Positions 18,102 through 52,235 of a stretch of DNA of 64,000 bases are shown here, piece by piece (the stretch's first letter is position 1; every line of letters starts with the position of its first letter). The stretch spans positions 1,568,001 through 1,632,000 of the forward strand of contig OZ242195.1 in assembly GCA_965205975.1 (NCBI GenBank). Reading direction: 5' to 3'. The notes under the pieces were generated by a model. It saw only the letters and a program-made list of their open reading frames with translations, ran no database searches and was not told the DNA's origin. This DNA is from Candidatus Latescibacterota bacterium. GTDB lineage: Bacteria; Latescibacterota; UBA2968. The translations under genes were made by a program, and so were the position numbers.

Positions 18102-21100
18102 CTACCAGCCTATTGTGGCGCGTCCAGTAACCCCGTTATCCGCACCGATAGACAACGGACTCGCGCGCCGATGGGCATCGAGGTTCAACTCAAACCTCAA
18201 ACCCTCGCTAACGAGTGTACCGATGCCATAACCAACGCGGTAATCCCGACCTTGAGCCGAGGTCGCAAAGCCCAAACGCGGCGTGCCCACAAAGCGCCTG
18301 CCCAACGCCAAACCATACCCCAGATCCGCATCGAGACGGTTGCCCGTCGCATAACCACCACCCGCTATGCCCGACATCGTGGGCCGACCCCACAACGCCT
18401 CGGCTCCGCTCGTCGCCTGACCGCCCCACGAAGGCGACATACGCATCGTCAAACCCAATGGCGTCGATGGACTCGGATTGTAACGCAAAGACACCGCCAT
18501 ACCGCGCTCACGGTAGCCTTCCGCCTCGTGGATCAGCAACGTCCGCACGCGCATATCTACCTCCAGACCCGTCAAAGGATCCGAAACGACCAGACCCCCT
18601 GCGATATCCAGACCCGATCCTGTCTCGGCATCGCCCCCATCGTGACGAAGACCAACCATCACGCTCGGAGATAGAGACAATCGGCTCCGGAACGTCAGGG
18701 CATGAGATCCCTCAAGTGCTGTGCGCACACGGCTTACCACTGAACGCGTCGCTGCCAGATTGCCCGAAGAACCAGATACTGCCTCGCTCGACGTACCTAC
18801 CCACAACGCATCGGCCTTATACGACAACCTGAAACCGTCTGCGCTCCTGCCGATCAATTCGCCGCGCGTGCCCACCGCCGCCAGCGACATCGACAGACCC
18901 GCCGACAGTTGCGAGGCGCCTTCTTGACTCAGCAGCATACCACCCACACCGTAGCCACCTACTGCCCACACCGTCATCCGATCCGTCAAACGATAGCCCA
19001 GCCACGGATAAAGACCCGTCACCGACGAAGCCACACGACCACCACCCACCCCACCCGTGTAACTGCCCAATCCCCAACTGCGAGACAAAGACAAGCCCAC
19101 CAGAAAAGGTCCCTTCGCGTAGTCAGTACCGAGCATCGCCGTGCGAACAGTGCCATCCAGACCCAGATCATCTTCGCGACCAAAAAAGGACGACCGCGCA
19201 CCACGGCTCCAGAAAGAGAACACGCCTCCCCGATCCATCTCACGGTTAAGCGTAAACGACGAACCCGTCAGCACATCGCCCATCCTGAAAAGCGACCTCA
19301 GCATGCCTGCAAGACCAAAGGAAGAGCCAGACGACGCCATCCCTACATCGCGCCGCCCCAACGACGGGTTGTGTGACCCATACCCGCCGAGGCCATACAC
19401 AAAGCGATTCGCCACATCCCTGACCATATCCTCAGCACGACCCAACTGATGACCCGCCAAACGCCCCTCAAAACCCGACTCACGCCGTGCCTGCAGACGC
19501 TCCTCCACATATTCCACCACCTGCAACGCCGCCGTCCGACCAAACCGCGCAAGCAGGCCCTTAGGCATTGGATCGATGTTCTCAATGGTGCCAGTTGCAT
19601 CCGCGTCGGAGAGATACGCGTTGCCGCCCGACGCGTTGGAGAGCGTCAGCGTGAACGTCTCTGAACCCTCGTCAATGGCATCGTCGAGCACTGGCACCGA
19701 AATTGTCTTCTCTGTCTGTCCCGCATCGAACGTCAGCGTACCCGACGTAGATGTGTAGTCCACTCCGACCGTTGCCGTGCCGTCAGAGGTCGCATAATCC
19801 ACTGTCACGGTCTCCGACAAAGCCCGACTCAGCGTCACTGCAAAATCGACTGTCGCATTGGCAGCCTCCTGCACGCTCGCATCCGCCACAGACAACCCCG
19901 GCGGCCCCTGAACTGTCGCCGATACTGCCCCCTGCAACTGACGACCATCGGACGTCTCCACGGCGCCAGCCGGCAGGCTGATCGTCACCGCATCATACGT
20001 ATCCGGCGCCACCGTGATCTCCCAACCCTGGTTGTTGCCCGACACGAGACGCCCCGCCTTCGTCACCGCACCCCCCGTCACCGTGAAGGCATTATCGCGC
20101 AGCGTCCGGTAGCTAAGACCCACCACATCCTCACTGAAATGCAATTCGAACTTGAACGCACTCGACCCGTCGTGGGACGACGGCACATTTCCGAAACTCG
20201 CTGTCAACGGCTCGGGTTCCGTATCGGGCGGCTGATTCTGGACGGTCTGTGCCACCGTCGCCGAAACCGTCTCCGAAACTGTCGCCGACAACGGGCGGTT
20301 ATCCTCGGTGCAGATCGCACCGGTCTCCCCACAGTCTGCCGCAAGCAGTGTGATCGTCACATCCTGATCATTGTCGGGCGTAACCGTCACATTCCACGCC
20401 TGATTCTTCCCCGTTTCCTGGCGCCCTACCCCGGTGAGTTCCCCATTGGTCACCTGCAGCGCGTGATCGCGTAGCGTCCGGTAGCTCAGGTTGAACTCCT
20501 CGGAGAAGTGCAACTCAAAGGTGAACGCGGATTCGCCGTGGGAAGCCGGCAGTCCCTGGAACTCCGCCGTCAACGGCTCGACCGGATCGTTGTCTGGTGG
20601 GTCGTTAGTTGGGGGAGACCCTGCGACGGTGATGGTGGCCTCGCCGCTCCAGCCTCCGGAGGTGCCGCTATATGAGGCGCGTATCTTCACCTTGTATTCT
20701 TCTCCGTCCTCCAGACCCGTGATGGTGTAGGAAGGCTCGGTGGGATAGGCATTGCCAGTGTTGTCGGTCCAGGTCTTGTAACCCTCGTCCTGCTTTGCCC
20801 ATGTTATGCGGTAGTTGGCCGGAGCCTCCGTTGGTGCTTCCCAGGAGGCCTGGATGGTTCCGGGCGTGTCTGCCGTCAGGGTAATGGTTCCGATGTCGCG
20901 GGCACCGCGCGGTTCTTCCGGTTCCAGCACGACGGTATTGCCCGAAGGTGGATCGGCCGAATCGTCGTTGTTAATGGTCCCGGTCGCAGTCGCATCTGAG
21001 AGATACGCATCGCCACCCGATGCGTTGGAGAGCGTCAGCGTAAACGTCTCTGAACGCTCGTCAACGGTATCGTCAAGCACCGGCACCGAGACCGTCTTCT

Positions 21101-24100
21101 CCGTCTGTCCCGCATTGAATGTGAGCGTCCCGGACGTAGATGTGTAGTCCTCCCCAGCCGTCGCCGTGCCGTCCGAGGTGGTATAATCCACCGTCACCGC
21201 CTCGGTAGCCGCCGGGCTGAGGGCGACGACAAATTCTGCCGAGGCGTCGGTCCCCTCCATCACCGTCACGTCCGCCACAGAGAGTTCGGGTGCGTTCCCG
21301 AAGGCCACATCCGCCACCCTGCCATCAGTATCCTGAATGGTGACCCCATTCAGCGCGATCTCATTTGACACGATCCTTACCTGCTGCGACCCGTCGTCCG
21401 AGGCGGTCACCGGGTATTCAAATCGCAGGATATCGGTTGCGGAACCACTCACAAACGCCGCCTCGCGGCGCGTGCCGTCAAGGGCGATGCCGACGGTGGC
21501 CTTCGCGTTGGAGGAACTCTGCACCTGCACCGGGCGGATGAACCGGACCTCCACGACCACAGTCTCGCCGGTGTCCCAGGTGCCGTTTGCGCCAGGCTCG
21601 GAGGTCACTGTTGCGCTTATCGCGCCCGAAGGCTCGTCGTCCAGGATATCACCGGTTACATGTGCTTCCGCAAGGTATGCCTTTGCTCCCGAGTGGTTCG
21701 ACAGCGTCAGGGTAAACGACTCGGCATGTTCGCTCACCGAGTCGTTGAGCACCGGCACCGAGACCGTCTTTGAGGTCTCCCCCGGGACAAAGGTGAGCGT
21801 GCCAGAGGTTTCCTCATAATCTTCCCCAGCCGTCGCCGTGCCGTCCGAGGTCGCATAATCTACCGTCACTGTATCTGCCACCGCCCGGCTCAAGGTCACC
21901 TCGAATGCCGCCGTGGCATCTGCCGCCTCGGTCACTTCGGTATCCGCCACCGAGAGCACGGGCGGACCCTTGATCCGTGCGAAAAGCCGGTTCGACAGCT
22001 TCCGTCCGTCTTCTGTACACACCGCACCCTCGTCATTGCAGTTCTCGGTCGGGTTAATCGTAATGGTGAAGTCCTCGGTCGCGTATTCGGCATCGGATTT
22101 CCTGCGTTCCACCACGACCCCCCAGCGCTTCCCACTCGGCGGATCGAGCTTGTACCCCCTTTTCGCATTGTAGGCGCGCGGACCGAGCCGCATAATCAGC
22201 GTCTCTAATCGCAGCGTCATATAGTTGTAGCTGCTTGCGGGTTCCTCGCTGAACACAATACGGAATTCGATCGGGCCGACGCCGTCATGGACCTTCGGGA
22301 GGCTGCCCTCCTCGAATTTTACCGTGAACTTCGGTGCGGGGATCTTCGCCGTGATCGTCGCCGAGGCCGCGCGGTTGCCCGCCCTGTCCTGTATCGGGTT
22401 CTCCGAAGGCACCGCGTAGCTCACCCTCACAGAATCGCCGGGTGCCGCCGCCGAGGCAAACCTCAGCATCACGGTCAATCCGCTCACCACGACCGGATCG
22501 CTCGACGCCAGATCCCGCGTCTGACCGCCCACCGTCACGGTGAACGCATCCACCCCCGGCGTGGAGGTCTCGTCAAGCGCTTCGCTATACGTCAGCACCA
22601 CCGAGTCCCTTCTCGCCACGGCAGCCTCGAACGCCGGCGCCGTGGTATCACTTTCCGGTGTGTGGTTGGTCACTGCCTGATCGCTCAACGCCACCACCGC
22701 GTTGCCCGCCCTGTCCTGTATCGGGTTCTCCGAAGGCACCGCGTAGCTCACCGTCACAGAATCACCAGACGCCGCCGCCGAGGCAAGCCTCAGCATCACG
22801 GTCAATCCGCTCACCACGACCGGATCGCTCGACGCCAGATCCCGCGTCTGACCGCCCACCGTCACTGTGAACGCATCCACTCCCGGCGTGGAGGTCTCGT
22901 CAAGTGCTTCGCTATACGTCAGCACCACCGAGTCCCGGCGCGCCACGGCAGCCTCGAACGCCGGCGCCGTTGTGTCACCTTCCGGTGTGTGGTTGGTCAC
23001 TGCCTGATCGCTCAACGCCACCACCGCATTGCCCGCCCTGTCCTGTATCGGGTTCTCCGAAGGCACCGCGTAGCTCACCCTCACAGAATCGCCAGACGCA
23101 ACCGCCGAGGCAAGCCTCAGCCTCACGCGCCGCCCATCTACTGCCACCGGATCGCTCGACGCCAGATCCCGCGTCTGACCGCCCACCGTCACGGTGAACG
23201 CATCCGCGGCCGGTGTGGCGTCCTCGTCGAGTCCATCCCTGTACAATAGTACCAGTTGCGCGCCATCCACCTCCGCACGCAAAAACGCCGGCGCAGTCTC
23301 ATCTACTGCGTTCGGATCACTCGGCATAATATCCCAAAACGCCCTGTTCGACAGGGGTCGCCCGTCCTCGGTGCAGATCGCCCCTTCCGCGTCGCAGTCG
23401 GTGGTGGGTAGCAATTCGACCCGAATCGTCTCGTTGTACAGCGGCTTGATCCAGAACACCCAGGTCTTTGGCTGATTATCTTTGGGGAACGCGTTCGTGA
23501 CCTCGCCGTTGGTACTCCGGACCGCATCCCGCATGGCCTCGCGCGAGGTCGTCACCGGATAGCTGAACTCGGCGTTGAGCGCGAACAGCTTCGAGCCGTC
23601 GTGCCCGTCGCCGTACCTCTGCCACTGAACCGTAAGCGGAATGCTCGCCGGTCCCTTCACGCGGACTTCCGCACCCGACGACAACTTGCGCCCGTCCGTC
23701 GCGCACAGCGCGCCCGAGTCGCCGCAGGATTCGGGTGGTGCGACCGATAGAACCACGTCCTCGATCGAGGACGGCGCCACCGTGAGCCGCCAACTGTGGC
23801 GGAGTCCGATCTCGTGCTCCGCCGACCGTACCCGACCGCCGGTGACGGCAACCGCCCTGTTGGCCATCATCCACTTGCTCAGGTCGGTCGCCCCGTTGAA
23901 ATTGAGCCACACCGTAAAGTCTTCCGAGCCGTCGTGCGCCTCCGGCGTGTCGAACTCGGCCGTCAGCGGCGGCACGGTCCCCTGAGAGATCGTCGCCGTT
24001 ACCGCTTCCTCCAGGGGCCGGTCGTCCTCCGTACACACCGCGTCCTCGGCGTCGCAGTCTGTCGTCGCTGGCAGTTCAACTGTCACGTCGCCGCCCGTCG

Positions 24101-27100
24101 GCTCGAGCGTGACCTCCCAAGCCGCGTTCTCTGGACCCTCGCCATTCAACCGGCGCGCCCGCGTTAGCTGGCCGTTTGTCACGCTCAGGGCGTGGTCGCG
24201 CATTGCAGTCCACGACACAGCGGTCGCCTCGCTGAAGCGCACCTGCAGCACGAATGGCCTGCCCGCGTGCGCCTCCGGCGCGCCCTCAATGGTCGCCGTC
24301 AACGGCAGCAGCGACGATGATAGGACAGTCGCCACGACCGCGGCAGAGAGCGGGCGGGCGTCCTCCGTACACACCGCATCCTCGGCGTCGCAGTCTGCGC
24401 TCGTCGGCAGCGTGATGGTGACGTCTTCATCGACGTCCGGCGTAATGGTGATCTCCCAGTTGTGGTTCTTATTTGACACCAGCCGGCGCGCCGCCGTGAC
24501 CTCGCCGTTCGTGACCGAGAGCACATCCGACTGCCCGTTGCTGCCCATGATCTTCTGATGGCTCACCGAGACGTTCTCATCGCTGAACACGAGCTCGAAC
24601 TTGAATGGATTCCCGCCGTGTATCGCCGGCAGTTTCCAGAACTGCGCCGTCAATGGCGCGGACTGGCTCGTTTCCAGTTGCGTGCCGACCCGGCTCACTG
24701 GCTGACTGAAACTCTCGGCATCGACGCCTGCCCGGTTTTGCAGTGCAAGTTCGTCGTCGCCTGCGGTGGGATCGCTATAGGTGACGGTCACAGTTTGCGC
24801 GGACGCGGGAATCGCGGGCGAAATGTCCAGCGCGATGGCCCTATAATCCGAACCCGAGCCACGCACGCCAGTGACCGTTGCCGACGCGCTGTCGTAGGTC
24901 ACCGCAAACGCCTCCAGCGCGGGAAGCGCGTAGAAATCAATCGCCCGGGTGAAGCGCAGGGAAAGCTCGTCGCCTGCGGCGTTGAGTTGCACCGGACCCA
25001 CCAGCACCGGTGCGGCCGGGTCCGACACCGTCGAGCCGTTGATCGCCGCAAATCCGGAAAAACTCTCCGCGTCTTCGCCGCTGCGGAGTTGCAACGCGGC
25101 GTAGTCATCGCCATCGGTCGGGTCGCGGTAACTCACCGTGACTGTCTGATGCGCTTTGATGGGGAGAACGAACGACAGCCGTATCCATTGGTCGGAGGCC
25201 GATGCCTCGATGCTGGACACGAGATGCAGGACGCCGTCGGCGTTCACGATAAAGGCACTTTTCGGCGGTGTCCGCCCCGTTCGGTTGTCGAATGCCCGGT
25301 CGAAGAACAACTGGAGTTGGTCGCCTGCCGACGGTATCGTCGCCGACTGCGGAGCCGGCGGCTGGAGGCCGATGACCCTATCCGTGACCGCCGCCGACAG
25401 CGGCCGGTCGTCTCCGGTGCATACCGCGCCTGTGGCGTCGCAGTCCGTCGTCTCGGACAACGCGACTGTCACGTCGTCTTTTCCGTCCGGCGTGACAGTG
25501 ATGCTCCACGTTCGGTTTTCTCCCGCGACGACGCGGCTCGCCGCGGTCACCTGACCCCCCGTGACCGACAGCACGCCCTGCTGCCCATCGCTGCCCGTAA
25601 CGTCATCGAGGCCGAGCGAAACTTCCTCGCTGAAGCGCAATGTGAATGTGAACGCATCCCCGACATGGTGTGCCGGCATCCGCACAAATTCTGCCGTCAG
25701 CGCCGTCACTTGCGTCGTTACCGGCACGGGGTCGTCGTTGAGGATGGTGGCGATGCCCCAGGCGTCGGCAATGTACGCGTTGCCGCCCCGGGGATTCTCC
25801 AACTTCAGCCTGAAGGTCTCGCCGCTGTCTTCGAAAAAGTCATCGAGCACCGGTACCGAGATGTTCCTGGTGGTCTGACCGGCGTTGAAGGTCAGCGTGC
25901 CCGAGGTGTGCGTGTAGTCCTCCCCCGGGGTCGCGCTGTTGACCGGGACGGTCTCATAATCCACCCTCACCTGCGCCGTCGCCGCCGGGCGCAGCGTGAC
26001 CTCGAAGTTTGCCCTGGCTCCCCTGGCTTCCCGCACCGTCGTGTCCGACACGTAGAGCGCGGGCGCATTGGGATTGGGCACATGTATGGCCTCCAGGTTG
26101 AAAAAAACGGGCGCCTGGTTGCCATCCTGATCCAACACGCCGGGCGGCCGCGGACTGACCACCTGTGCGCGGTCGTAGGTCACATACAGACTGGCCCCAT
26201 TGCGCACGTCCTGATCGGAAACACCGCTCCCCAGTCTCAGTTTCACCACCCGGGGCCTGCCCAGGTAATCGTCGATGATGCTGATTTCGTCAACCGCGAA
26301 GCCCGAGGATTGCGAGCCTGTAAAATGCACGTCATACAGGTACTGCGCATCGCTCAGTCTCGAGTTCCGGTCGAGGTCGCGGTTGTAGTGGACGTAGATC
26401 TCGACTCTTCCCGAAACCTTGCGCCAGGTGAGGGTCTCGCCCCACTGCGCCAGCGGATAACCCGGGCGCGCAGAATACGACCACGCCCCGTTACCGATCG
26501 GATTCTCCCAGCGCACCCGCACATCGTAGGCCAGCCCCTGTGTCACCGGCGCGGAGGTCACCGAGTGTCGCTCATCCGGCCCCTTGCGCCGCCAGTTCCA
26601 GAAATCTCTCGCCTGCGACCACCTGTGGTCGGACAGCTTGTATTGCAGGCGGTACAATTTTGCCTCGTTGGTGCCAGCAAAGGACACCTGCAGCCGATCC
26701 GCGCCGCGCTCCTGCACGGTTTGCACCATCAAATCGGCCGGTGCCGACGGCACACGGCGGATGCCGCGCACCCGGTGGACCGTCCGCTCCCGGAGACCGC
26801 TGCCGCTTACTTGAGAGCACAATGACCCTAATGTATTGCAGGGCAACGGCTCCAGCGTCAGGGTCAGGTCTTCGCGACTCGACGGCTCGATCTGCAGCAC
26901 AAACAGTGTATTATCGGAGAACGTCTCGATCGAGGACACCCGTCCACCGACCACCCCGATGGCGCGGTCCGGGCCGATCAGGTCCGTCAACATCGGTCCG
27001 GAGAGATAGAGGGTCCTGTTTCTCGGACCGGTGAAATCATCTATCCGCTCGTGTACGCGGATGTTATCCGTGAACCGTATGCGAATTTCGAACGACTCGC

Positions 27101-29582: not shown

Positions 29583-29696
29583 ACAGCGATTCCTCCCTTT
29601 TGGTTTAAAATTACCTCACGTTGTGCAAGGCATCCCCCGTCGCTGCCACGCGCTTCAGAGATGCCCTTTTGAGGCTCTGACAAACTTTTATATATA

Positions 29697-35876: not shown

Positions 35877-35902
35877 AGATGAGACATGCACACGGGGCGC
35901 CT

Positions 35903-41221: not shown

Positions 41222-41267
41222 AATCGATTGCTCCTCTTCAAGATTGATTTAAAACCGAATAGACGCG

Positions 41268-44200
41268 CTATTTCAGCAGCAAAAGACGGCGTACCTGCAC
41301 CTCCTGTGCACTGGACAACCGATACAGATAGATCCCACTGGCAACGGGCGCACCATTATCGTTGCGCCCATTCCAGACCACCCGATAGCGACCAGCCGAC
41401 TGGACCTCCTGCACCAGAGTCCGTATCCGCTGTCCCAGAATATTGTAAATCGCCAACTCTACAGCACCCGACGTGGATAGGCGATAGGCGATATGCGTCT
41501 CGGGATTAAACGGATTCGGATAATTCGCTTCCAGTCCGAAGGTCAGACTCGGCACTATGGGCTTAGACGACTGTGACTCGACGACTGTGATCGTAGCCTG
41601 ACCGCTCCAGTCGCCAGCAGTGCCGTTGTATCGGGCGCGTATCTTCACCTTGTATTCCTCACCCGCCTCCAGACCCGTAATCGCGTAGGAAGGTTCGGTG
41701 GGATAGGCGTTGCCAGTGTTGTCGGTCCAGGTCTTGAAGGACTCATCGACCTTAGCCCACATTATGCGGTAATCGGCTGGAGACTCGCTGGGCGCCTCCC
41801 AGGATGCCTGGATCGTTGCTGGGGTCGCTGCCGTCAGGGTAATCGTTCCGATGTCGCGGGCACCGCGCGGTTCTTCCGGCTCCAGCACAACGGTATTGCT
41901 CGGGGGTGGGTTGTTGACAGGCGGCTCGTCGTCCTCCGGCCCCACGACCGTCGCCGAGACCGCCGCCGATAGCGGGCGATTATCGCCGGTGCAGACAGCC
42001 CCTGTGGCCGTGCAGTCGGTCGTCGCCACCAGCGTGATCGTTACGTCCTCGTCGCCGTCGGGCACGACCGTCACATTCCACGCCTGATTCTTCCCCGTTT
42101 CTTGGCGTCCTACCCCGGTGAGTTCTCCGTTGGTCACCTCCAGCGCGTGGTCTTGCAGCGTCGTGTAGCTCAGGCTGAACTCCTCGGAGAAGCGCAACGC
42201 AAAAGTGAACGCCGACTCGTCGTGGGAAGCCGGCATATTCTCGAAGCGGGCCGTCAGCGGTACGGCCGGCTGGTTGTCAGGCGGAGACTCGGCGACGGTG
42301 ATGGTGGCTTGGCCGCTCCAGCCCCCTGCAGTGCCGTTGTATGAAGCGCGCATCTTCACCTTGTATTCTTCTCCCGCCTCCAGACCCGTAATTGTGTAGG
42401 AAGGTTCGGTGGGGTAGGCGTTGCCGGACGGGTCGGTCCAGGTGAGGAAGTTTTCGCCGACCTTAGCCCATGCGATGCGGTAGTTGGCCGGCGTCTCCGT
42501 TGGCTCCTCCCAGGCGGCCTGGATGGTTCCAGGGGTGTCTGCTGTCAGGGTAATCGTTCCGATGTCGCGGGAACCGCGCGGTTCTTCTGGCTCCAGCACG
42601 ACGGTATTGCTCTCGGGTGGGTCCTCCTCCTCCGGTTCCGCCGTAGGCTCCGTGCCCCCATGGGACAGATCCGCCACAAGCCCGCTCGCTCGCGAAGCGA
42701 TTGTCCCACCGCTCGCCCCCAAGCTGTTCGCAGTGATCCCGATCTGGGTGTGCCTTGCCTGTTCGTCGGCCACCTCATGGACGAACACCAGCGTGGCGCT
42801 CCCAGAACCGGACGCAAGACCCAGTATGGCCGGCCCGCCGGCGATCGTGATCCCAAGGGTCGCAGCGCCCCCCTTAAACGACACCGCCTCGTTGAAGGCG
42901 ACGCGCACCTCGATGGTCTCGCCATGCGTCCAGATGCCGTCGCCCGACGCGTCTGCGACCAGTTCCACACCGGTCACGTACGGCACTGTCGCGAAATCGA
43001 GTTCCGCCTCTTGGTCGTTGTTGTCGCCGAGCACGGTGCCGTTCAACGACAGCCCATTGGCTGCCACCCGCGCCTTCCGCGCTCCAGCATCCGCGGCCGT
43101 CACCGCGTAGCTAAACCGCAAGAGGGCGCTGCCCGAACCTCCTGTGTAATCGGCTTCCCTCCGGGTTCCGTCGAGCAGAATCCCAAGCATCGGGCCGACG
43201 CCCACCGGTCCGGTGACCGCCACCGGACCGCTGAACCGCACCTCGGCCACGACCGTCTCACCGGTGTCCCAGACCCCGTTGCTGCCCGGATCAGAGGTCA
43301 CTGACACCTCCGTCACGTACGGCACGGGCTTCGGCCCCAGCACCGTCGCGGACACGGCCTCGGCAAGGCCGCGGTCGTCCTCGGTGCAGAGCGCACCGGT
43401 CTCGGTGCAGCTTTCCTTGGGCTGAAGCGCGATCGTCACCTCGGCCTGGGACGACGGCTCCACCGTGATCGTCCAGGTCTGGCTCTTGCCTTCCTCGACC
43501 TGCTCGGCTCCCGTCACCTGACCGTTCGTTACATCCAACGCCGAGTCGCGCAGGACGGCCGCGTCCACCGGAAACTCCTCGCTGAACGCCAACCGGAAGG
43601 TGAACGCCGTTTCCGCGTGGTGGGTGGGCACAGACTCGAAGGTGGCCGTGACCGGCTCGCCGGGTACCCGTTGGGCTTCGGGGACGCGGGTGGTAATCGT
43701 GGTCGAAGCCGCGAGGTTGCCCGAGGGGTCTTGCAGCGGGTTGGTCAGCAGTATCGTGTAGCGCACCGTCACTGGCTGCCCGGCTGCCACCGCTGAGGCA
43801 AACGTCAGCGTCACGGTCGATCCGCTTACTACAACCGGATCGGTCTCGGCTAGGCTTTGCGCTTGGTCTGCCACCGTCACCGCAAACGCCGCCGCCACGG
43901 GTGTCGAGGTCTCGTCGAGCGCCTCACTGTAGGTCAGCACCACCGAGTCCGTACTCGCCGTAGCTTCCTCGAGCTCGGGTGCGGTGGTGTCTCCTTCCGG
44001 GGTGTGGTTGGTCACGGCCTGATCATTCAGGGCCGCCGCCGCGTTGCCCGCCCGGTCCTGAATCGGGTTCTCTGTCGGCACGCTGTAGCGCACCGTCACC
44101 GTGTCGCCGTGGGCGACCGCGGATGTGAGCGTCAGCCTGACCCGCCGCCCGTCCACGGCCACCGGATTGCTCGCCGCTAGGCTCCGCGGCTGGCCTCCCA

Positions 44201-47135
44201 CCGTCACCGTAAACGCTTCCACCGCAGGCGTGGAGGTCTCATCGAGCCCCTCGCGATACAATAACAAGAGGTGCGCGCCATCTACCTCCGCACGCAACAA
44301 CTCCGGCGCGGTCTCATCTACTGCGTTCGGATCCCTCGGCATGATATCCCACAGCACCCGGTTCGTCAGCGGCCGTCCATCCTCGGTGCAGATCGCCCCC
44401 TCGGCGGTGCAGTCGGTGGTCGGCAGTAACTCGACCCGTATCGTCTCGTTGTACAGCGGCTTGATCCGGAATACCCAGATCTTTGGCTGATTGCGTTTGG
44501 GGAACGCGTTCGTGGCCTCGCCGTTGGTAACCCGAACCGCCTGCTGGTACATAGCCTCGCGCGAGGTCGCCACCGGCCAGCTGAACTCGGCGTTGAGCGT
44601 GAACACCTTCGTGCCGTCGTGCCTGCCGACGTACGTCTGCCAATGCGCCGTCAGCGGAATGTTCGCCGGTCCGGTCACGCGGACCTCCGCACCGGATGAC
44701 AGCTTGCGCCCGTCCGGCGCGCACACCGCGTCCGCGTCGCCACAGGAGGCGGCGAGTGGGGCGAGCACCAGAACCACATCCTCGATCGATGTCGGCGCGA
44801 TGGTGAGCAGCCACCGGTCGCGGCGTCCGAGCTCGTGCTCGGCCGACCGTATCCGCCCCCAGGTTACGCTCAGCACTTTGGTGCGCATTGCCGTTTCGGT
44901 CACGTTGACTGGACCAGTGAAGTTGAGCCTCACCGTAAAGTCTTCCGATCCGTCATGCTCTTTCGGTGCCTCGGCGAATGCCGCTGTCAGCGGCGGCACA
45001 GTTCTCTCGGCAATCGTCGCCGTCACGGCTTCCATCATGGAACGGCCATCTTCCGTACACACCGCATCCTCGGCCTCGCAGTCCGTTGTCGCCGGCAGTT
45101 GGACTGTCACATCGCCGCCCGACGGCTCGATCGTGATCTCCCACTGCTTGTCCCCGTCGTTGCCGTGTCGGCGCGCCCGTGTCACCCGCCCGTTCGTCAC
45201 CCTCAGCAGGCGGTCGCGCATCGCAGTCCACGAGACGCTGACCGCTTCGCTGAAGCGCACGCGCAGCACGAATGGCGCACCATCATGCGTGTTCGGCACG
45301 CTTTCGAAACTCGCGGTCAGCAAGGGCCTCAGGAGGGTTTCAATCGTCGCCGAGGCGGCCGGATTGCCCGCGATGTCTCGTAGCGGATTCGAGGACGGCA
45401 CCGTATAGCTTGCGGTGACGGAATTGCCCCACGCCAGCGCCGAGCCGGTCAGCGTCAGCCATACTATGTTGCGCTCCAGCCGCACGCTCTCGATGCCGCG
45501 CGAAATCTCATTCACGGTCACCGCGAAGGCCCCCGGGGCAGGCGTAGAAGACGCGTCCAATATCTCGTCGAACACCAGCAACAGCGCGTTTCCGTCCTTA
45601 CTCGCCGACTTGAGTTCGGGACCGCCCTCCTCGTCGACGTCCGCGAGGGTGACGGTCAGGGTATCACCCACCGTGTTCGCACCGTCGCCCACCTGCACCA
45701 CCACTTCGTAGCTTCCGTCGCGATCGGTGTCGTCTGGTGTCTCGAAGTCCTTGGCAGTCCTGAAGGCGAGTGCGCTACCCTCGGTGAAGGTGAGGTGATC
45801 TGCATCCACACCGCCCTCGATGGACCAGACTAGGTCCTGGACCGGCGTGTCCCCGTCGGTCGCCGTCAAGGCGGCCACCGCGGTTTCCCCCTCGTACACC
45901 GTGAACGGACCGGTGCTGGTGATTATCGGTGGCTCAGTCACGAGAAGTGGCTCACTGTACACGGTCTGCTGGGTGTCGTCGGTGTAGATGGCGCGTACCT
46001 TGAGCGACTTGCCTTGGTCGGACGGCCTGATGGTGTATTCGGTCCCGGTGGCTCCGGCAATCTCCGCAAAGGAATCGCCGTCGCCGTCGCTGACCAGCCA
46101 TTGCCACTGGAACGTCGGAATGGTTAATCCGTCCTGGTCATGGATGCCGGTGGCGGATGCGATCAGCGTACGACCCACATTCGCACTGCCCGTCACGGTG
46201 ATCGAGGGAGCATCCACCAACTGGTATACCCGGACCCAGTCCACCAGGGCCTCGTTGGGGAACGTACCGGTATGTGCGTTGCCCGCGAACCAACTCACCC
46301 CGGTGGACAGAATGACGTATCCGTCACTGTGGGATACGGCATCGAACATCTGCTCCTTCCGTTGTCCGTCTGCGTAGAAGGTGTAGCTGTCCGGTGTCCA
46401 CGCGAGCCCGTAGACGTGGAACTGTCCGCCGTGTATCGGAGGGAACTCGGCCTCCTCGACGAGACTGCGGCCGCCGTCCCAATGAACGGCCATGGCATAG
46501 CGGTCGGTAGTGTACACCGACTCGAGGATGTCGATTTCGGCTCCGTCGGAGGGCCCGTCGACACCGCCGTTACTGGCCTTTTTGTTCCGGTTGTCGTTCT
46601 GCAGCCAGAAGGCCGTGTGGACGCCGTCCCCGGTGGGGGCGATCCTGATGCTGGCCTCGAAGTAGCCGTAGGTCTGCTCGAACTTGCCCTTGGTGTCGAT
46701 CGCGGCGGCCTTGACCAGGTCGTATTCATCACCCAACTGCCGGGTATTGCGCAGTACCAGGTGGCTGTTCGCGATACTGACGTTGTCGTGCTCGTATCGC
46801 CACTTGATCCGGTGACCGTTGTGCGAGCGGTCACCTCGAAACGCCTCACTCCGGTGATTCCATTTAGACTCATCGAGCGCGGTGCCGTCGAAGTCCTCAC
46901 TCCACGCAAGGACCCAGCGCTTGCCGTAAGGGGGAGGGGGAAGCTGTGCGTCGGCAGCCCGCGGCTGGAGGAACAGGGACAGCGGTATCACCCACGCAAC
47001 AAGGACCCAGGCACGGGTCCTAGGATGCGAGAATCGCGAGACGTTCCAACGAGATAGCATATTGTCTGTCATTCCCTGAACGGTGAACGGTCTATTTGTT
47101 CGCCGGATGGCCAGCGATCTACTCACATACCCCAT
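41268..47135 (-). CDS. GH16-tipped modular surface protein (1955 aa) with FlgD-Ig/T9SS-like CTD
   Basis: WSEDFDG, YGYFEASI, EIDILE, FHVYGLAW, VDWVRVYQ; cadherin, SwmB-like, fn3; NYPNPFNP...LLLLK tail. Confidence 0.9.
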   Translation of the reverse strand: MGYVSRSLAIRRTNRPFTVQGMTDNMLSRWNVSRFSHPRTRAWVLVAWVIPLSLFLQPRAADAQLPPPPYGKRWVLAWSEDFDGTALDESKWNHRSEAFRGDRSHNGHRIKWRYEHDNVSIANSHLVLRNTRQLGDEYDLVKAAAIDTKGKFEQTYGYFEASIRIAPTGDGVHTAFWLQNDNRNKKASNGGVDGPSDGAEIDILESVYTTDRYAMAVHWDGGRSLVEEAEFPPIHGGQFHVYGLAWTPDSYTFYADGQRKEQMFDAVSHSDGYVILSTGVSWFAGNAHTGTFPNEALVDWVRVYQLVDAPSITVTGSANVGRTLIASATGIHDQDGLTIPTFQWQWLVSDGDGDSFAEIAGATGTEYTIRPSDQGKSLKVRAIYTDDTQQTVYSEPLLVTEPPIITSTGPFTVYEGETAVAALTATDGDTPVQDLVWSIEGGVDADHLTFTEGSALAFRTAKDFETPDDTDRDGSYEVVVQVGDGANTVGDTLTVTLADVDEEGGPELKSASKDGNALLLVFDEILDASSTPAPGAFAVTVNEISRGIESVRLERNIVWLTLTGSALAWGNSVTASYTVPSSNPLRDIAGNPAASATIETLLRPLLTASFESVPNTHDGAPFVLRVRFSEAVSVSWTAMRDRLLRVTNGRVTRARRHGNDGDKQWEITIEPSGGDVTVQLPATTDCEAEDAVCTEDGRSMMEAVTATIAERTVPPLTAAFAEAPKEHDGSEDFTVRLNFTGPVNVTETAMRTKVLSVTWGRIRSAEHELGRRDRWLLTIAPTSIEDVVLVLAPLAASCGDADAVCAPDGRKLSSGAEVRVTGPANIPLTAHWQTYVGRHDGTKVFTLNAEFSWPVATSREAMYQQAVRVTNGEATNAFPKRNQPKIWVFRIKPLYNETIRVELLPTTDCTAEGAICTEDGRPLTNRVLWDIMPRDPNAVDETAPELLRAEVDGAHLLLLYREGLDETSTPAVEAFTVTVGGQPRSLAASNPVAVDGRRVRLTLTSAVAHGDTVTVRYSVPTENPIQDRAGNAAAALNDQAVTNHTPEGDTTAPELEEATASTDSVVLTYSEALDETSTPVAAAFAVTVADQAQSLAETDPVVVSGSTVTLTFASAVAAGQPVTVRYTILLTNPLQDPSGNLAASTTITTRVPEAQRVPGEPVTATFESVPTHHAETAFTFRLAFSEEFPVDAAVLRDSALDVTNGQVTGAEQVEEGKSQTWTITVEPSSQAEVTIALQPKESCTETGALCTEDDRGLAEAVSATVLGPKPVPYVTEVSVTSDPGSNGVWDTGETVVAEVRFSGPVAVTGPVGVGPMLGILLDGTRREADYTGGSGSALLRFSYAVTAADAGARKARVAANGLSLNGTVLGDNNDQEAELDFATVPYVTGVELVADASGDGIWTHGETIEVRVAFNEAVSFKGGAATLGITIAGGPAILGLASGSGSATLVFVHEVADEQARHTQIGITANSLGASGGTIASRASGLVADLSHGGTEPTAEPEEEDPPESNTVVLEPEEPRGSRDIGTITLTADTPGTIQAAWEEPTETPANYRIAWAKVGENFLTWTDPSGNAYPTEPSYTITGLEAGEEYKVKMRASYNGTAGGWSGQATITVAESPPDNQPAVPLTARFENMPASHDESAFTFALRFSEEFSLSYTTLQDHALEVTNGELTGVGRQETGKNQAWNVTVVPDGDEDVTITLVATTDCTATGAVCTGDNRPLSAAVSATVVGPEDDEPPVNNPPPSNTVVLEPEEPRGARDIGTITLTAATPATIQASWEAPSESPADYRIMWAKVDESFKTWTDNTGNAYPTEPSYAITGLEAGEEYKVKIRARYNGTAGDWSGQATITVVESQSSKPIVPSLTFGLEANYPNPFNPETHIAYRLSTSGAVELAIYNILGQRIRTLVQEVQSAGRYRVVWNGRNDNGAPVASGIYLYRLSSAQEVQVRRLLLLK

Positions 47136-47189
47136 TGTCGTTTATCTCCTTTCCCAATGATTAGACAGGCTCCAGCGTAGATAGACGCG

Positions 47190-50100
47190 CTATTTCAGCA
47201 GCAAAAGACGGCGTACCTGCACCTCCTGTGCACTGGACAACCGATACAGATAGATCCCACTGGCAACGGGCGCACCATTATCGTTGCGCCCATTCCAGAC
47301 CACCCGATAGCGACCAGCCGACTGGACCTCCTGCACCAGAGTCCGTATCCGCTGTCCCAGAATATTGTAAATCGCCAACTCTACAGCACCCGACGTGGAT
47401 AGGCGATAGGCGATATGCGTCTCGGGATTAAACGGATTCGGATAATTCGCCTCCAGCCCGAAGGTCAGACTCGGCACTATGGGCTTAGACGACTGTGACT
47501 CGACGACTGTGATCGTAGCCTGACCGCTCCAGTCGCCAGCAGTGCCGTTGTATCGGGCGCGTATCTTCACCTTGTATTCCTCACCCGCCTCCAGACCCGT
47601 AATCGCGTAGGAAGGTTCGGTGGGATAGGCGTTGCCAGTGTTGTCGGTCCAGGTCTTGTAACCCTCGTCCTGCTTTGCCCATGTTATGCGGTAGTTGGCC
47701 GGAGCCTCCGTTGGCGCCTCCCAGGATGCCTGGATCGTTGCTGGGGTCGCTGCCGTCAGGGTAATCGTTCCGATGTCGCGGGAACCGCGCGGTTCTTCCG
47801 GCTCCAGCACAACGGTATTCTCCTGAGGTGGATCGTTGGCGGGTGATTCTGCGACCGTGATGGTGGCCTGACCGCTCCAGTCGCCAGCGGTGCCGCTATA
47901 TGAGGCGCGTATCTTCACCTTGTATTCTTCTCCCGCCTCCAGACCCGTAATCGCGTAGGAAGGTTCGGTGGGATAGGCGTTGCCGGTGTTGTCGGTCCAG
48001 GTCTTGAAACCCTCGCCCTGCTTTGCCCATGCTATGCGATAGTTGGCCGGTGCTTCACTGGGTGCCTCCCAACTGGCCTGGATGGTTCCCGGCTGAGAAC
48101 TGACCAGAGTGATCCTTCCTATGTCGCGAGTGCCACGCTGCTCGGGTGGCTCCAGCACAACGGTATTCTCCTGAGGTGGATCCGCAGGAATGTTCTGGAC
48201 TGTGACGATAACCGTGTCAGAGTCTGTGGCGCCGTGCTCGTCGGTGGCAGTAAGCGTAAAGGTGATGGTGGCATCAGAGTCCACCTGGGGCGCAGTAAAT
48301 GTAGCAGAGAGAGCTGCTGGGTCATCCAGCGAGAGGTCCAGATCATCCTGGTCGTGGGTCCACTGGTAGGTCAGATTATCGTTGTCAGGGTCAGAGGCTG
48401 TTCCGGACAGCGTCACCTCAGAGCCTTCCTGAACGGTCTGGTCAGATCCGGCGTCGGCAGTCGGCGCTTCGTTGGATGGAGACCCTGTGACCGTGATGGT
48501 GGCCTCGCCGCTCCAGCCTCCGGAGGTGCCGCTATATGAGGCGCGTATCTTCACCTTGTATTCTTCTCCCGCCTCCAGACCCGTGATGGTGTAGGAAGGT
48601 TCGGTGGGATAGGCGTTGCCGGTGTTGTCGGTCCAGGTCTTGTAACCCTCGCCCTGCTTTGCCCATGTTATGCGGTAGTTGGCCGGAGCCTCCGTTGGTG
48701 CTTCCCAGGAGGCCTGGATGGTTCCGGGCGTGTCTGCCGTCAGGGTAATGGTTCCGATGTCGCGGGCACCGCGCGGTTCTTCCGGCTCCAGCACAACGGT
48801 ATTGCTCGGGGGTGGGTCGCTGTCATCCTCCGGTTCCGCCGTAGGCTCCGTGCCCTCGTGGGACAGGTCCGCCACGATGCCGGTCGCTCGCGACACGATT
48901 TTCCCACCGGTCGATCCGAGGCTGTTCTCCGTGATCGCGATCCGGATGTGCCTTGCCTCTTCGTCCGCCACCTCCTGTCCAAATACCAGCGTTGCAGTTC
49001 CGGAACCGGACGCAAGGGCGAGTACCGCCGGCCCGCCGGAGATCGTTACCCAAAGAGTCAGGCTGCCCTTCACGGACACCGGCTCGCTGAAGGTGACGCG
49101 CGCCTCGATGCTCTCTCCGTGTGTCCAGGCGCGGTCGCCCGACTCGTCCGCGACCAGTTCCACGGCGGTCACGTAGGGCGCGACCGGCGGTGTTCCCAGC
49201 ACCGTTCCCAAAAGTGCTGCAGACCACTCCCCATCGCCTTCCGAGCTCGTCGCCCTTACCCGCACCTCATATTTAGCTCCCTCCACCAGCCCCGATATTT
49301 TCGCGCGGGTCTCCGCCACATCCTGCGGTCCGTCTCTGAACGGGTCGCCGGCCGGCCACCCCACCAGGCGGTAGCCCAGGTCGTAGTGCAGAATGTCCGG
49401 TTTGCCCGAGTTTGCCGGGGCGAGCCACGACACCGTCAAACTCTCGCGGTCCCGCGACTCCAGCGTCGGCGCGGCCAGGCTGTCGGGTGGTTCGTCCTGA
49501 TTCGAGACCGTGATCGTCAGTCCGTGCTCGGCGCTATCCTCACCGTCCCGCACAATGATCGAAAGCGCGTGCTCGCTGGCCTTCTCGAAGTCCAGCACCG
49601 CCTTCGTCCTCAGCTGCGCAGTCGTCGAATCAATCGCGAAATCGTCCTTGCCGGGCCCGTCCAGAGAATAGGTCAACGCAGCGTTCGGATCCGTGCGGGA
49701 CGCGGTGAAGGGTTCGCCGATCTTCGTGTCCGTTGGCGTATTCTCGGCGACTGACAGCGTCACCGGCAGACCTGCGTCGAATACGAGCGGACGTTCAACG
49801 CGTGCGCCCAGGATCTTCATCTTCATTACATAGTCTCTGGTGCTCCATTCAATCCAGCCGGTTTGCTTCCAATGACTGTCGTCTGCAATCCGCCAGGCGT
49901 CCGTTCCGGATTCGGCGCCACTGTTGGTCGCCTCGATCTTGAACCATCGCTCAGTGCCTGAAGTGTGCAATGCGAACTGGATCACATAGTCGGTATTGGG
50001 CTGAAGAATCCTGCTCTCCTCCGACGTACCATCGACAGGTACGAACGTCACCGGGCCGCCGTCGCCGAGGAACTTGCCGTACGTCGTTGGATTCTCGAAA

Positions 50101-52235
50101 TCCAGGATCTTCTCCCCGAGTGGGTCGCTTGCGTCACCGAACAAATGGAGCGATGCCTCCAGATTATCCCCGTCGATCTCTTCGTAGAAGCCAAAGTTCA
50201 ACACGACCGATGTCAGTTCGTAGCCATCCCTTGAATCGCCGGTGGTAAAGACCTGTGCCCCCCGCTGATTGAGGCTAGTGCCGTCTGCCTTGCCGATTTT
50301 GGGTCGCCAGTCCAGCGGTCGATCCAGGTTGCTGACCAAAACATCGCCCTGCGGGACGCCGACGGGCGGTGTCGTCGAGTCATCGTCCGCGATGGTGCCG
50401 GTTGCCGTGGTGTCCGACAGATACGCCCGCCCGCCCGACGCATTGCTCAGCGTCAGCGTGAACGTCTCGGCGCCTTCCTCGACTTCATCTGACAGCAACG
50501 GCACCGAGACCGTCTTGCCGGTCTCGCCCGTCGCGAACGTCAGCGTTCCCGACGTGGCCGTGTAATCCGCTCCGGCGGTCGCCGTCCCATCGGAGGTTGC
50601 GTAGTCCACCGTCACGGTTTCAGCCACCGTGCGGTTCAGCGTCACCGCGAAGTCCACGGTCGTGTTCGCACCCTCCACCTCGCTCGCATCGACCACCGAC
50701 AGCCAGGGCGCCGGACCCGGAACCGTCGCCGCCACCGGCACCGAGAGCGGCCGCCCATTGTCGGTGCAGATCGCGTTGGCCGCCGAGCAGTCCGTCGTCG
50801 CGAGGAGAGTGATGGCAATGTCCGCAACGTCGCTGTCCGGAGCGATGCGAATCCGCCAGACAAGATTCCGGTGGTTCGACCCGTACCGGTACGTCCGCTC
50901 CAACCGTCCGTTGACCACGGCAAGCGCGCCCGCCCGCCTTCCATCCCCCTTCAGGTTCAAGTAGCTGAAGAGCGAATCCGGTTCTTCGCTGAAGCTGAGC
51001 AGAAATTCGAATGCCGCCCCGTCGTGACTGGTCGGCACCCCGACAAACTCTGCCGTAAGCTCGGCCCCGTCGATCCGCCCTGTCGCTATCGCGTCCAGGA
51101 CTCGCGCGTTGGCGCTCGGGTTGCTCAGCGTCAGCCTGAATTCCTCAAAGTCCTCGTGAACATCGTCGTCGGAGATTGTCACGGTCACGGTTTTCGAGGT
51201 CTCGCCCGCGGCGAACGTCAGCGTCCCCGAAACGGCCGTGTAGTCGGATCCGGCGATGGCCGTCCAGTCGGAAGTCTCGTAGTCCACGGTGGCCGCATTC
51301 GGCAGCGCCCCGTCCATCGTCACGACGAAGGATGCGGTGTAGCCCTCGACAGCCATCGCGTCGGCTACGTACAGACCGCCGGGTCCCTGGGTGTCGGGCG
51401 CCACCTGGAAAACGGAGGAGAGGGCATAGACCCGGGTGGACAATGTGCCGTCGGCACCAGCGCCCCGGTCAACGCTGTACATGGGCATTCCGCCGGAGTT
51501 CAACTTTCCGCCGCCGACCCTTTCGCCCTCGGTCGTAATATTGCGAAACGGCCACTTGGGTTTGGAACGGCCGTCCGACGTGCTGCCGTTGAGTACGCCA
51601 AGTGCCTCGTCCGATCCCGATCCGCCCGCCTCGGTGGTCCAGGATTCGCTATCCCAGTACCCGTCGTACAGGTCCTCGTAGTCGTCCGCGACCCTGACGC
51701 CGCTGCCAAGCCAGTAGATGGGCTCGCCGGGGCCATCCGTGTTGGGGTTCGTACCGGTGTTGTCCCGCGCGGCTACCGCGGCCGTACTGGCCAGGACCCG
51801 GAAGAGTGAACTGTGCGATTGAATGGCCGCGTGGCCCGCCGCCGCGCGGGCCTGCACGAACGCGTTGTAGTCGTCGATGTCGTTGGAGTTGAGCTGGATC
51901 TCAGTGGAGGTCACGAACAACAGGCGGAACGTGTCTCCGGCCCCTACTTCGGGCGGAATCAGCGACCAGTCCGACGGAACCCTGGTCTGTGCCCAGGCTG
52001 GCACCCCCGACAGAAGCGCAGCAAGCGCGAGGAGCACGGCTACAGTCCAGCCCGCAGTGGTGGATCGCGCCCGACCGTGGCGGATCAACAATCCATGCCG
52101 GACCACATCGTCCACCTCGTTGTGAGTGTTCGGACAGGGCTCGAGACAGCTAACTCGCATGGAAGTGCCTTGCTTGTCAATCGGTGCTCCGCAATTCAAG
52201 GTAGCCGTTTGCTGGACTGAAGTTGTCATGCTCAT
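47190..52235 (-). CDS. Modular surface protein (1681 aa): lectin-like N-terminal domain (tentative), Calx-beta, cadherin, fn3, PKD, FlgD-Ig/T9SS-like CTD
   Basis: VPSDWSLIP...FRLLFVTS tip, PTADAGSDQTV PKD motif, tail identical to the 1955-aa protein. Confidence 0.88.
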   Translation of the reverse strand: MSMTTSVQQTATLNCGAPIDKQGTSMRVSCLEPCPNTHNEVDDVVRHGLLIRHGRARSTTAGWTVAVLLALAALLSGVPAWAQTRVPSDWSLIPPEVGAGDTFRLLFVTSTEIQLNSNDIDDYNAFVQARAAAGHAAIQSHSSLFRVLASTAAVAARDNTGTNPNTDGPGEPIYWLGSGVRVADDYEDLYDGYWDSESWTTEAGGSGSDEALGVLNGSTSDGRSKPKWPFRNITTEGERVGGGKLNSGGMPMYSVDRGAGADGTLSTRVYALSSVFQVAPDTQGPGGLYVADAMAVEGYTASFVVTMDGALPNAATVDYETSDWTAIAGSDYTAVSGTLTFAAGETSKTVTVTISDDDVHEDFEEFRLTLSNPSANARVLDAIATGRIDGAELTAEFVGVPTSHDGAAFEFLLSFSEEPDSLFSYLNLKGDGRRAGALAVVNGRLERTYRYGSNHRNLVWRIRIAPDSDVADIAITLLATTDCSAANAICTDNGRPLSVPVAATVPGPAPWLSVVDASEVEGANTTVDFAVTLNRTVAETVTVDYATSDGTATAGADYTATSGTLTFATGETGKTVSVPLLSDEVEEGAETFTLTLSNASGGRAYLSDTTATGTIADDDSTTPPVGVPQGDVLVSNLDRPLDWRPKIGKADGTSLNQRGAQVFTTGDSRDGYELTSVVLNFGFYEEIDGDNLEASLHLFGDASDPLGEKILDFENPTTYGKFLGDGGPVTFVPVDGTSEESRILQPNTDYVIQFALHTSGTERWFKIEATNSGAESGTDAWRIADDSHWKQTGWIEWSTRDYVMKMKILGARVERPLVFDAGLPVTLSVAENTPTDTKIGEPFTASRTDPNAALTYSLDGPGKDDFAIDSTTAQLRTKAVLDFEKASEHALSIIVRDGEDSAEHGLTITVSNQDEPPDSLAAPTLESRDRESLTVSWLAPANSGKPDILHYDLGYRLVGWPAGDPFRDGPQDVAETRAKISGLVEGAKYEVRVRATSSEGDGEWSAALLGTVLGTPPVAPYVTAVELVADESGDRAWTHGESIEARVTFSEPVSVKGSLTLWVTISGGPAVLALASGSGTATLVFGQEVADEEARHIRIAITENSLGSTGGKIVSRATGIVADLSHEGTEPTAEPEDDSDPPPSNTVVLEPEEPRGARDIGTITLTADTPGTIQASWEAPTEAPANYRITWAKQGEGYKTWTDNTGNAYPTEPSYTITGLEAGEEYKVKIRASYSGTSGGWSGEATITVTGSPSNEAPTADAGSDQTVQEGSEVTLSGTASDPDNDNLTYQWTHDQDDLDLSLDDPAALSATFTAPQVDSDATITFTLTATDEHGATDSDTVIVTVQNIPADPPQENTVVLEPPEQRGTRDIGRITLVSSQPGTIQASWEAPSEAPANYRIAWAKQGEGFKTWTDNTGNAYPTEPSYAITGLEAGEEYKVKIRASYSGTAGDWSGQATITVAESPANDPPQENTVVLEPEEPRGSRDIGTITLTAATPATIQASWEAPTEAPANYRITWAKQDEGYKTWTDNTGNAYPTEPSYAITGLEAGEEYKVKIRARYNGTAGDWSGQATITVVESQSSKPIVPSLTFGLEANYPNPFNPETHIAYRLSTSGAVELAIYNILGQRIRTLVQEVQSAGRYRVVWNGRNDNGAPVASGIYLYRLSSAQEVQVRRLLLLK

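Follow-up and report, generated by a model that had tools for sequence, protein, structure and literature searches.

Four long surface-protein genes, here called A, B, C and D, lie in a 64,000-nucleotide (nt) stretch (contig OZ242195.1, positions 1,568,001 to 1,632,000; hereafter the window) of a genome that likely belongs to Latescibacterota, and comparison of their modules shows exchange between genes with two different predicted export tails: D and A end in an autotransporter-like outer-membrane barrel, and B and C end in a type IX secretion system (T9SS) C-terminal domain (CTD) of type A. Judging from their domains, the four products are long bead-on-a-string surface proteins and likely adhesins. 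We consider it quite probable that the shared repeats act as crossover points of ordinary homologous recombination, with near-identical stalks pairing with either a predicted barrel or a predicted T9SS signal. The phenomenon is of a known kind and this reading of it is well supported by the sequence; the change of export route that goes with it is what we infer. The source genome is a single contig of 5.56 Mb (50.9% GC, 98.3% complete). Among 40 members examined in the 90% cluster of its glutamate-tRNA ligase, 4 are named, 3 as Gemmatimonadota and 1 as Ca. Latescibacterota. A sponge habitat for the host is suggested by the accessible parts of the literature on such lineages (PMC8163846, PMC12993501); sequencing run X5, which has only a small share, was left aside on this point. 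In what follows, P#### denotes database proteins or open reading frames (ORFs), G### genomes (G000 being this genome) and L### fetched loci; Ig, Z and FnX are module labels of this analysis, FnX being an fn3-like module, and module orders were obtained from profiles built on module coordinates. Positions within the window are collected in Table 1.

The argument for exchange across tails rests on P0292, one uninterrupted ORF that runs through SwmB, Ig and sandwich modules, an FnX and then Calx-Ig repeats to a barrel end. Against B, the three leading modules of this ORF reach 96, 94 and 92% identity, and against the CTD-tailed P0247 they reach 95, 98 and 95%; its FnX is 93% identical to that of P0247, and its fourth module is only 65% identical. 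P0123 joins the N-terminal half of D (mostly 87-98%, tip 70%) to the middle of B (93-96%) and has seven modules in common with P0247 at 94-100%, while the barrel-tailed P0003 carries an Ig module 92% identical to the last Ig of B; P0123 and P0003, both on a contig of 184,043, look like one split gene, but their junction is seen in protein only and therefore does not carry the argument. A D-like leader and tip (50%) also occur on a CTD in P0122.

Across the tail classes, module identities of 92-97% are seen. The first-pass annotation, made from the sequence alone, had described the FnX module as occurring six times in three genes of both tail classes, and this holds (one copy in D, two in B, three in C, none in A). 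The FnX of D is 96% identical in nucleotides to the first FnX of C, while other pairs reach 80-88%, except for the two terminal copies (94%). A quick tree was built from 98 distinct FnX sequences, with 8 truncated, frameshifted or duplicate proteins excluded; in it the two barrel-gene copies nest among the CTD-gene copies, sister to the first FnX of C (SH 92). Since FnX is present in only 1 of the 120 best barrel homologues, and that one is the D orthologue, the module probably moved from the CTD class into D. The last FnX of C has 61 informative sites, of which 43 match the last FnX of B and 18 contiguous ones match D (3 runs, P<1e-4), giving a sharp-edged conversion tract of 54 nt.

The CTD tails of B and C are near-identical as had been claimed (41259-41736 against 47181-47658, 2 differences in 478 nt; for the CTD proper, 2 in 297 nt), whereas calling the barrels of D and A near-identical was generous: the barrel is indeed shared, with 99 mismatches over 1443 aligned nt (93.1%), a longest identical run of 342 nt and 89-92% amino acid (aa) identity. 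BLASTN E-values from 0 to about 1e-9 set the shared blocks apart from chance. In P0002, an orthologue of A, the barrel end is nearer to that of D (97%) than to that of A (89%). A second copy of D, called D2 (G000:C1:4488945-4499768, L091), is found next to tRNA-Gln at a distance of 2.9 Mb and has the same promoter in a copy of its own; D and D2 are 85-92% identical over the first 400 codons and 94-100% over most of the remainder, and 9 of the 15 barrel differences between them equal A. The tips of D and D2 have diverged to only 70% aa identity, against 92-100% for most of the stalk and barrel, and D2 is without 672 nt, in frame between two Calx repeats, and has one fewer Z-Calx unit. D2 was also considered as a tRNA-linked mobile element and set aside, as no integrase is evident among nearby ORFs of at least 200 aa. 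Most of the near-identity inside the window looks like patchy gene conversion and not like clean cassette swapping.

Both barrel genes also keep a trace of the other tail. Behind A lies an orphan CTD 3' end, absent from the first-pass annotation, with 27 nt between it and the stop codon of A, and with 1 difference in 84 nt from both B and C; behind D only a short scar is left. The 20-nt flank next to these pieces has exact matches in the genome only at these two places. In G039 the end and flank of an FnX-CTD gene match the remnant and its flank (90% over 104 nt), so what the remnant preserves is the sequence that originally lay at the downstream side of a CTD gene. Two histories would give this result: replacement of most of a CTD by a barrel block, or integration of A at the CTD end of B with duplication of that end. 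Also in G039, a D-like barrel gene is followed some 1 kb downstream by a CTD-only short frame (L055:4825-5286), possibly another scar.

The assignment of the tails differs in firmness. The tails of B and C pass TIGR04183 (35-42 bits, cut-off 23) and PF13860, and their last residue is Lys. The tails of D and A are predicted to form a C-terminal outer-membrane beta-barrel: in the Atlas comparison the region scores 0.96 against PF03797 clusters, with 28 of 30 matches in the PF03797 set, and among the Foldseek and VIA matches listed for an alignment-based structural model almost all are membrane beta-barrels (best Z 11.8, rmsd 3.8, 183 aligned). A fold of the single sequence was discarded (pLDDT 32.5). 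The barrel likely works like a type Va translocator; we call it autotransporter-like and do not file it as a family member because no family matched it at E<=1. Each tail class is predicted to be exported by its own route.

Of the checks proposed with the first-pass annotation, the search of the genome for secretion components returned both systems at least in part. BamA scores 512 bits (cut-off 297) and TamB 158 bits, with a second Omp85 of 607 aa near TamB; SprA passes its cut-off (G000:C1:1640322-1646573, 8 kb beyond the window), 15 of 18 PorV matches do so (one at 1666922), and 12 CTD proteins and RpoN are likewise over their cut-offs. Module trees, together with module orders in other assemblies, gave a mixed answer to the claim of recent shuffling across two secretion pathways. 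Exchange is supported by the cross-class identities, by the tree conflict and by alternative module orders elsewhere, and it can be called recent for FnX, the tails and the B-type block; the block of three Ig modules and SwmB does recur in D, A and B as claimed but is not a recent copy, and the two pathways are only inferred.

Several results weigh against the reading of recent exchange between two export routes. The three-Ig/SwmB block shares just 45-79% aa identity among its copies, which is why we do not count it as recent. The first FnX of C itself is nearly as good a donor for the conversion tract as D (5 runs instead of 3, one site's difference), so the tract alone is no proof of transfer between classes; the FnX and CTD trees are quick trees on few columns; and some of the swaps seen with P0292, P0247, P0123 and P0003 may have taken place in other organisms. 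For the barrel, no Pfam or NCBIfam family, PF03797 included, matches at E<=1; the model is weak (pLDDT 54.7, pTM 0.38), shows 16 strands of at least 7 residues where 12 would be expected of the type, and matches outer-membrane barrels generally with no autotransporter-specific match, an absence which excludes nothing, the TM-scores to autotransporter barrels being 0.13-0.22. On the T9SS side, neither GldM nor GldN turned up at E<=0.1 in this 98% complete genome, in a search that covered these two and whose controls were weak (no control genome passed the cut-off), and the PorU-like candidate, a 1903-aa C25 peptidase with a FlgD tail, reaches 271 and 70 bits in two pieces, below the NF033707 cut-off of 420.

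Where the genes came from can be read in part from their composition and surroundings. In the stalk modules the GC content at third codon positions (GC3) is mostly 0.67-0.91; the genome has a median of 0.55 and a 99th percentile of 0.72, and both tails have 0.58-0.63. None of 15 syntenic stretches has these genes, and in the 8 where both flanks fall inside the 20 kb fetched, the flanks are 0.6-12 kb apart, against about 49 kb here. The promoter region is matched in 12 of 20 genomes of the genus, where it usually follows a regulator of the same family and precedes surface-protein genes of varied kinds. These observations lead us to regard the cluster as an apparent island whose genes were imported and now stand behind a sigma-54 platform, activator and promoter, that is resident. 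The window holds three paralogous activators of this type (12481-15702, 32554-35745, 52505-55702), in which a Reg_prop beta-propeller and Y_Y_Y are fused directly to AAA+/HTH, with no kinase domain among their Pfam matches; throughout the genus this family has multiple copies, which often stand ahead of surface-protein genes. In G008 the syntenic site is occupied by a gene for a 1297-aa lipoprotein-like protein (L099:12725-16618) that is AT-rich (GC3 0.33), which suggests an insertion hotspot for foreign surface genes.

Relatives carry the same modules on a wider range of tails. A profile of the Ig module found 5536 representatives at E<=0.001, and the best 150 matches comprise 40 with a barrel end, 10 with a CTD, 12 with a third tail, 61 that stop in a stalk module and 27 with other ends, many of the last apparently frameshifted. 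The third tail (about 265 aa), seen in P0140, P0127, P0159, P0145, P0171 and P0179 besides these 12 more, also bears the GH16 tip of B (90-91%) and the tip of C (77%); by eye it consists of a dockerin-like motif, an Arg-rich stretch, a hydrophobic segment ending near a Cys and a small beta domain, and it has no convincing Pfam match. The odd tails of P0123, P0126, P0142 and P0245 were not counted as new types, being out-of-frame read-through of Ig or FnX modules. Of 12 loci from relatives, those in G015, G016, G006 and G005 include Ig-CTD genes, and those in G016, G021 and G039 include Ig-Calx-barrel genes. For the 22 CTDs found on kit proteins a single clade was rejected (p-AU 0.004, from a quick tree with long branches present), with 19 of them grouping together, so that more than one graft is likely. 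The barrel is carried by at least 3102 proteins; it is matched in 31 of 40 relatives at no more than 60% identity. A GTDB scan gave only 3 Vicinamibacterales loci with barrel relatives (54-57%), too distant to name a donor, and a scan of JGI metagenomes gave 5 distant loci only (46-63%), 3 of which are barrel-ended near-copies of one locus. In addition, an FnX-PKD pair is common in DUF285-repeat proteins with neither tail (P0130, P0137, P0139, P0185 and relatives); the hosts of these proteins may form a quite different group.

In the mechanism that we propose, high-GC3 stalks would have been acquired from other bacteria and inserted at a variable site that follows the resident sigma-54 activator and promoter. 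All four proteins would cross the inner membrane by a signal peptide (in D and A a basic-hydrophobic-AxA pattern is visible by eye in the translations). D and A would then leave through their own barrel, with BamA and TamAB, and remain anchored, while the CTD would hand B and C to PorV and SprA, with processing probably by the PorU-like C25 peptidase. The beta-sandwich beads may fit both routes, as their cysteine pairs are only 7 residues apart, and the stalk would hold its tip, whether GH16 glycanase, choice-of-anchor R or unknown, off the cell. Recombination between repeats could thus alter tip, length and export route independently. More tentatively, and with somewhat more doubt than belief, we suggest that the beta-sandwich stalks are route-neutral and that this lineage re-routes the same adhesin between BAM-dependent (barrel assembly machinery) autotransport and a motor-less type IX system, with a barrel family of thousands, possibly of more than 12 strands, and a third tail in the same pool; recombination at shared modules would then be frequent enough for the barrel and CTD versions of one gene to coexist in close relatives or in one population.

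Other explanations have to account for the same mosaic. Stalks might move between unrelated bacteria and be fitted once, on import, with the tail of the new host, so that here only gene conversion between neighbours took place; the foreign GC3 of the stalks, the Vicinamibacterales barrel relatives at 54-57%, the tips of B and C on third-tail proteins (90-91% and 77%) and the 19 of 22 kit CTDs in one clade agree with this. We hold it to be unlikely nevertheless, because both routes and both forms are present in this host, the CTD scar behind A differs from B and C by 1 nt, and P0292 and P0247 differ in tail although their consecutive modules are 93-98% alike. A programmed system, in which a site-specific recombinase or repeat-flanked cassettes move whole genes at the CTD 3' end and the CTD ends are attachment sites, is brought to mind by the direct repeats flanking A (84 nt) and B (658 nt), by a tyrosine recombinase gene at 5401-7077 and by the place of D2 beside tRNA-Gln. 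It is very improbable in view of crossover points that vary from hybrid to hybrid (three-Ig/SwmB block, Ig after FnX, Calx-Calx), of the 20-nt flank being exact only twice in the genome, and of the recombinase block lying also away from any adhesin gene and, in G012, at this site without these genes; we found no programmed switch with a dedicated recombinase and conserved crossover sites at the module borders, the crossovers falling in differing modules and the flank not being a repeated site.

That the four genes are old whole-gene duplicates whose tail identity was kept by selection, without exchange between classes, is largely refuted and barely worth retaining. It could explain why most stalk modules in the window are only 55-70% identical in nucleotides, but not why identity is patchy down to silent sites (the 342-nt identical run within 93% barrels, the 54-nt tract) and why module relationships change along each gene; module trees matching whole-gene duplication, which would have overturned the shuffling claim, are contradicted by the FnX tree. 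The slimmest chance of all we give to an assembly artefact of collapsed or misjoined repeats, the other objection foreseen at the outset. Repeats abound in the region, the 84-nt repeat is spanned by none of the short-read contigs listed, and 3 of the 4 runs come from one study, possibly the source of the assembly. However, the copies differ at many sites, and other assemblies repeat the module orders, mostly at 91-100% (D as P0001, A as P0002, B as P0247 with one extra Ig, C as P0142), which speaks against misassembly. In four runs, all 30 of the 30 bins of 34,500-47,150 are covered by short-read contigs, which cross both orphan-CTD junctions without differences, reaching 36 and 30 letters inside the repeat, the latter one short of the bridging threshold. 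Joints of short-read contigs that might suggest rearrangements are explained by paralogues (the 35790-35898 joint is the end of D itself) and were not used. Ordinary homologous recombination between shared repeats thus remains the reading we prefer.

Choice-of-anchor domains and adhesin shuffling are already known, and our comparison draws on the accessible parts of the papers cited. 'Choice-of-anchor' (CAA, IPR026588/PF20597; choice_anch_R, NF041539) denotes one extracellular domain on LPXTG, PEP-CTERM or T9SS anchors (10.1101/2023.03.06.531300). Choice-of-anchor R is present here both as the tip of D and as a domain in the middle of C, and the Ig-like module likewise stands on varied ends; however, the published pattern, as far as that text goes, is one of families, while here both anchors are side by side in one locus, one of them is an autotransporter-like barrel, stalks are 92-98% identical and the scar of the other tail is kept. 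In Porphyromonas gingivalis, kgp, rgpA and hagA have combinatorial adhesin modules with repeat-number changes and gene conversion (PMC5266723), and there too modules are common to several surface-protein genes; those genes are T9SS cargo with no tail change described in the part seen, while here the exchange reaches barrel-tailed genes. Yeast FLO adhesin paralogues form chimeric cell-surface alleles by ectopic recombination (PMC3512402), but they are eukaryotic and the available text describes no change of export route.

With type Va autotransporters (AIDA-I, EspP, NalP; PF03797) D and A share a putative signal peptide, the N-terminal passenger, the predicted C-terminal outer-membrane barrel with the Atlas score of 0.96 to PF03797 clusters, and closely spaced cysteines, a feature of autotransporter passengers in the portion of PMC8151025 available. 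Unlike them, the passenger consists of tandem Ig/Calx/SwmB/fn3 sandwiches, as in type Ve, and not of a beta-helix, and the barrel region of about 400 aa may exceed 12 strands and has no direct PF03797 match. T9SS type A cargo (TIGR04183) has a CTD with a Lys near the C-terminal end, according to the accessible part of PMC11285876, where CTDs are also said to be species-specific in some cases, and B and C are alike in their CTD of about 90 aa ending in Lys, with SprA, PorV and a C25 peptidase encoded; they differ in a host outside Bacteroidota, in GldM/N not being found, and in stalks that appear imported and also occur with barrels. Attachment genes with cadherin and fn3 are enriched in sponge symbionts and laterally transferred among symbiont phyla, Latescibacterota being one of the lineages studied (PMC8163846, PMC10947273). 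The domain types are the same as here, but what those papers give, in the parts at hand, is domain counts, without a description of tails or module exchange. In full-text searches of mostly open-access literature, no exchange of near-identical stalks between autotransporter-like (type V secretion system-like) and T9SS tails was found.

Work on a secretion system commonly uses the cargo native to it, while here nature offers pairs with stalks 92-98% identical and different tails. Such pairs make it testable what an autotransporter barrel and what SprA needs of a passenger, and whether a T9SS without detectable GldM/N exports cargo of 1700-1950 residues. They also suggest how attachment genes may spread among symbiont phyla with different envelopes, the stalk and tip being kept and the tail changed.

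Table 1. Positions of the four genes, their parts and neighbouring features in the window.
Feature	Position	Strand	Details
Short CTD scar behind D	18061-18095	minus	last three codons and stop 18084-18095; 20-nt flank 18061-18080
Gene D, 3826 aa	18102-29582	minus	choice-of-anchor R tip, cadherin, fn3, Calx-beta x4, SwmB x5, Ig-like x9, one FnX, barrel
Predicted barrel tail of D, 491 aa incl. linker	18102-19577	minus	autotransporter-like, final residue Trp
FnX of barrel gene D	20610-20936	minus	96% nt to first FnX of C
672-nt in-frame segment between Calx-beta repeats	20955-21647	minus	position approximate; missing in D2, present in P0001
Three-Ig + SwmB x3 block of D	22347-24305	minus
Tip of D	28887-29414	minus	choice-of-anchor R (NF041539, 56.3 bits, cut-off 30)
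90% copy of R3 3' end and promoter region	29666-29979	minus	upstream of D
Sigma-54-type -24/-12 site	29697-29712	minus	upstream of D
Gene L	30013-32514	minus	dockerin-like/cadherin/fn3/leucine-rich repeat (LRR) surface protein, host-like GC3 0.57
Regulator R2	32554-35745	minus	beta-propeller/Y_Y_Y/sigma-54 AAA+ activator, 91% nt to R3
Orphan CTD 3' end and flank behind A	35771-35875	minus	CTD end 35792-35875 (last 25 codons, stop, 6 nt); 20-nt flank 35771-35790
Gene A, 1772 aa	35903-41221	minus	Ig3-SwmB2-Ig2-Calx-Ig2-Calx-barrel (barrel 35903-37345)
Three-Ig/SwmB block of A	39473-41116	minus
Gene B, 1955 aa	41268-47135	minus	GH16 ... SwmB-Ig3-SwmB2-Ig-Z2-FnX-Ig-FnX-CTD
Parts of B		minus	GH16 tip 46212-46940, then cadherin-like; FnX 42279-42605 and 41568-41894; CTD 41268-41564
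Three-Ig/SwmB block of B	43689-45323	minus
Gene C, 1681 aa	47190-52235	minus	tip-Calx-Ig-Calx-anchorR-cadherin-fn3-Z-FnX-PKD-FnX2-CTD
Parts of C		minus	tip 51396-51986; choice-of-anchor R 49791-50330; CTD 47190-47486
FnX copies of C	48474-48800, 47838-48164, 47490-47816	minus
54-nt conversion tract in last FnX of C	47659-47712	minus	coordinates derived from module positions 105-158
Sigma-54-type -24/-12 site	52272-52287	minus	upstream of C
Regulator R3	52505-55702	minus	beta-propeller/Y_Y_Y/sigma-54 AAA+ activator

On the minus strand the order is R3, a sigma-54-type site, C, B, A, the orphan CTD end, R2 and L, followed by the 90% copy of the R3 end and promoter, D with the short CTD scar behind it, a PKD lipoprotein gene that is truncated, and an IS256 element. 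The site upstream of C likely drives C-B-A, the intergenic gaps being 54 and 46 nt; scans for sigma-70 promoters and terminators stayed at chance level (2 against 3.2 and 9 against 9.2, respectively), and no RNA data set was listed for the region. From its tip onwards D reads ... Calx-Ig-SwmB2-Ig4-SwmB3-Ig-Calx-Z-Calx-FnX-Ig2-Calx-barrel.

The four N-termini do differ, as first stated, but A lacks a tip of its own and opens directly on the three-Ig block common to D, A and B. Residues 636-815 of C match choice-of-anchor R (NF041539) with 58.8 bits, over the same cut-off as the tip of D. The tip of B matches PF00722 with 53.9 bits (cut-off 22), its best PDB matches are laminarinases (E 1e-15), and both catalytic glutamates of what we take to be the ExDxxE motif are present in the translation, all of which places it in the GH16 glycoside hydrolase family by sequence. 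For the tip of C nothing matched in Pfam, NCBIfam or PDB sequences, the Z module has no NCBIfam match, and the Ig-like module, like the barrel, has no direct Pfam model; the Ig module, whose cysteines are paired at 7 residues, resembles Big_12 clusters in the Atlas (0.92).

Among the neighbours, the PKD-domain lipoprotein-like gene directly downstream of D is interrupted by the IS256-family element (16117-17877), of which the genome has at least 3 more near-identical copies. A block at 3495-7145 with a membrane-fusion-protein gene, a metal-dependent hydrolase-like gene and the tyrosine recombinase is duplicated at G000:C1:2791941-2795591 (89.5%). A lone RAMP-family gene stands at 10433-11020, with no other cas gene recognised among the scanned neighbours.

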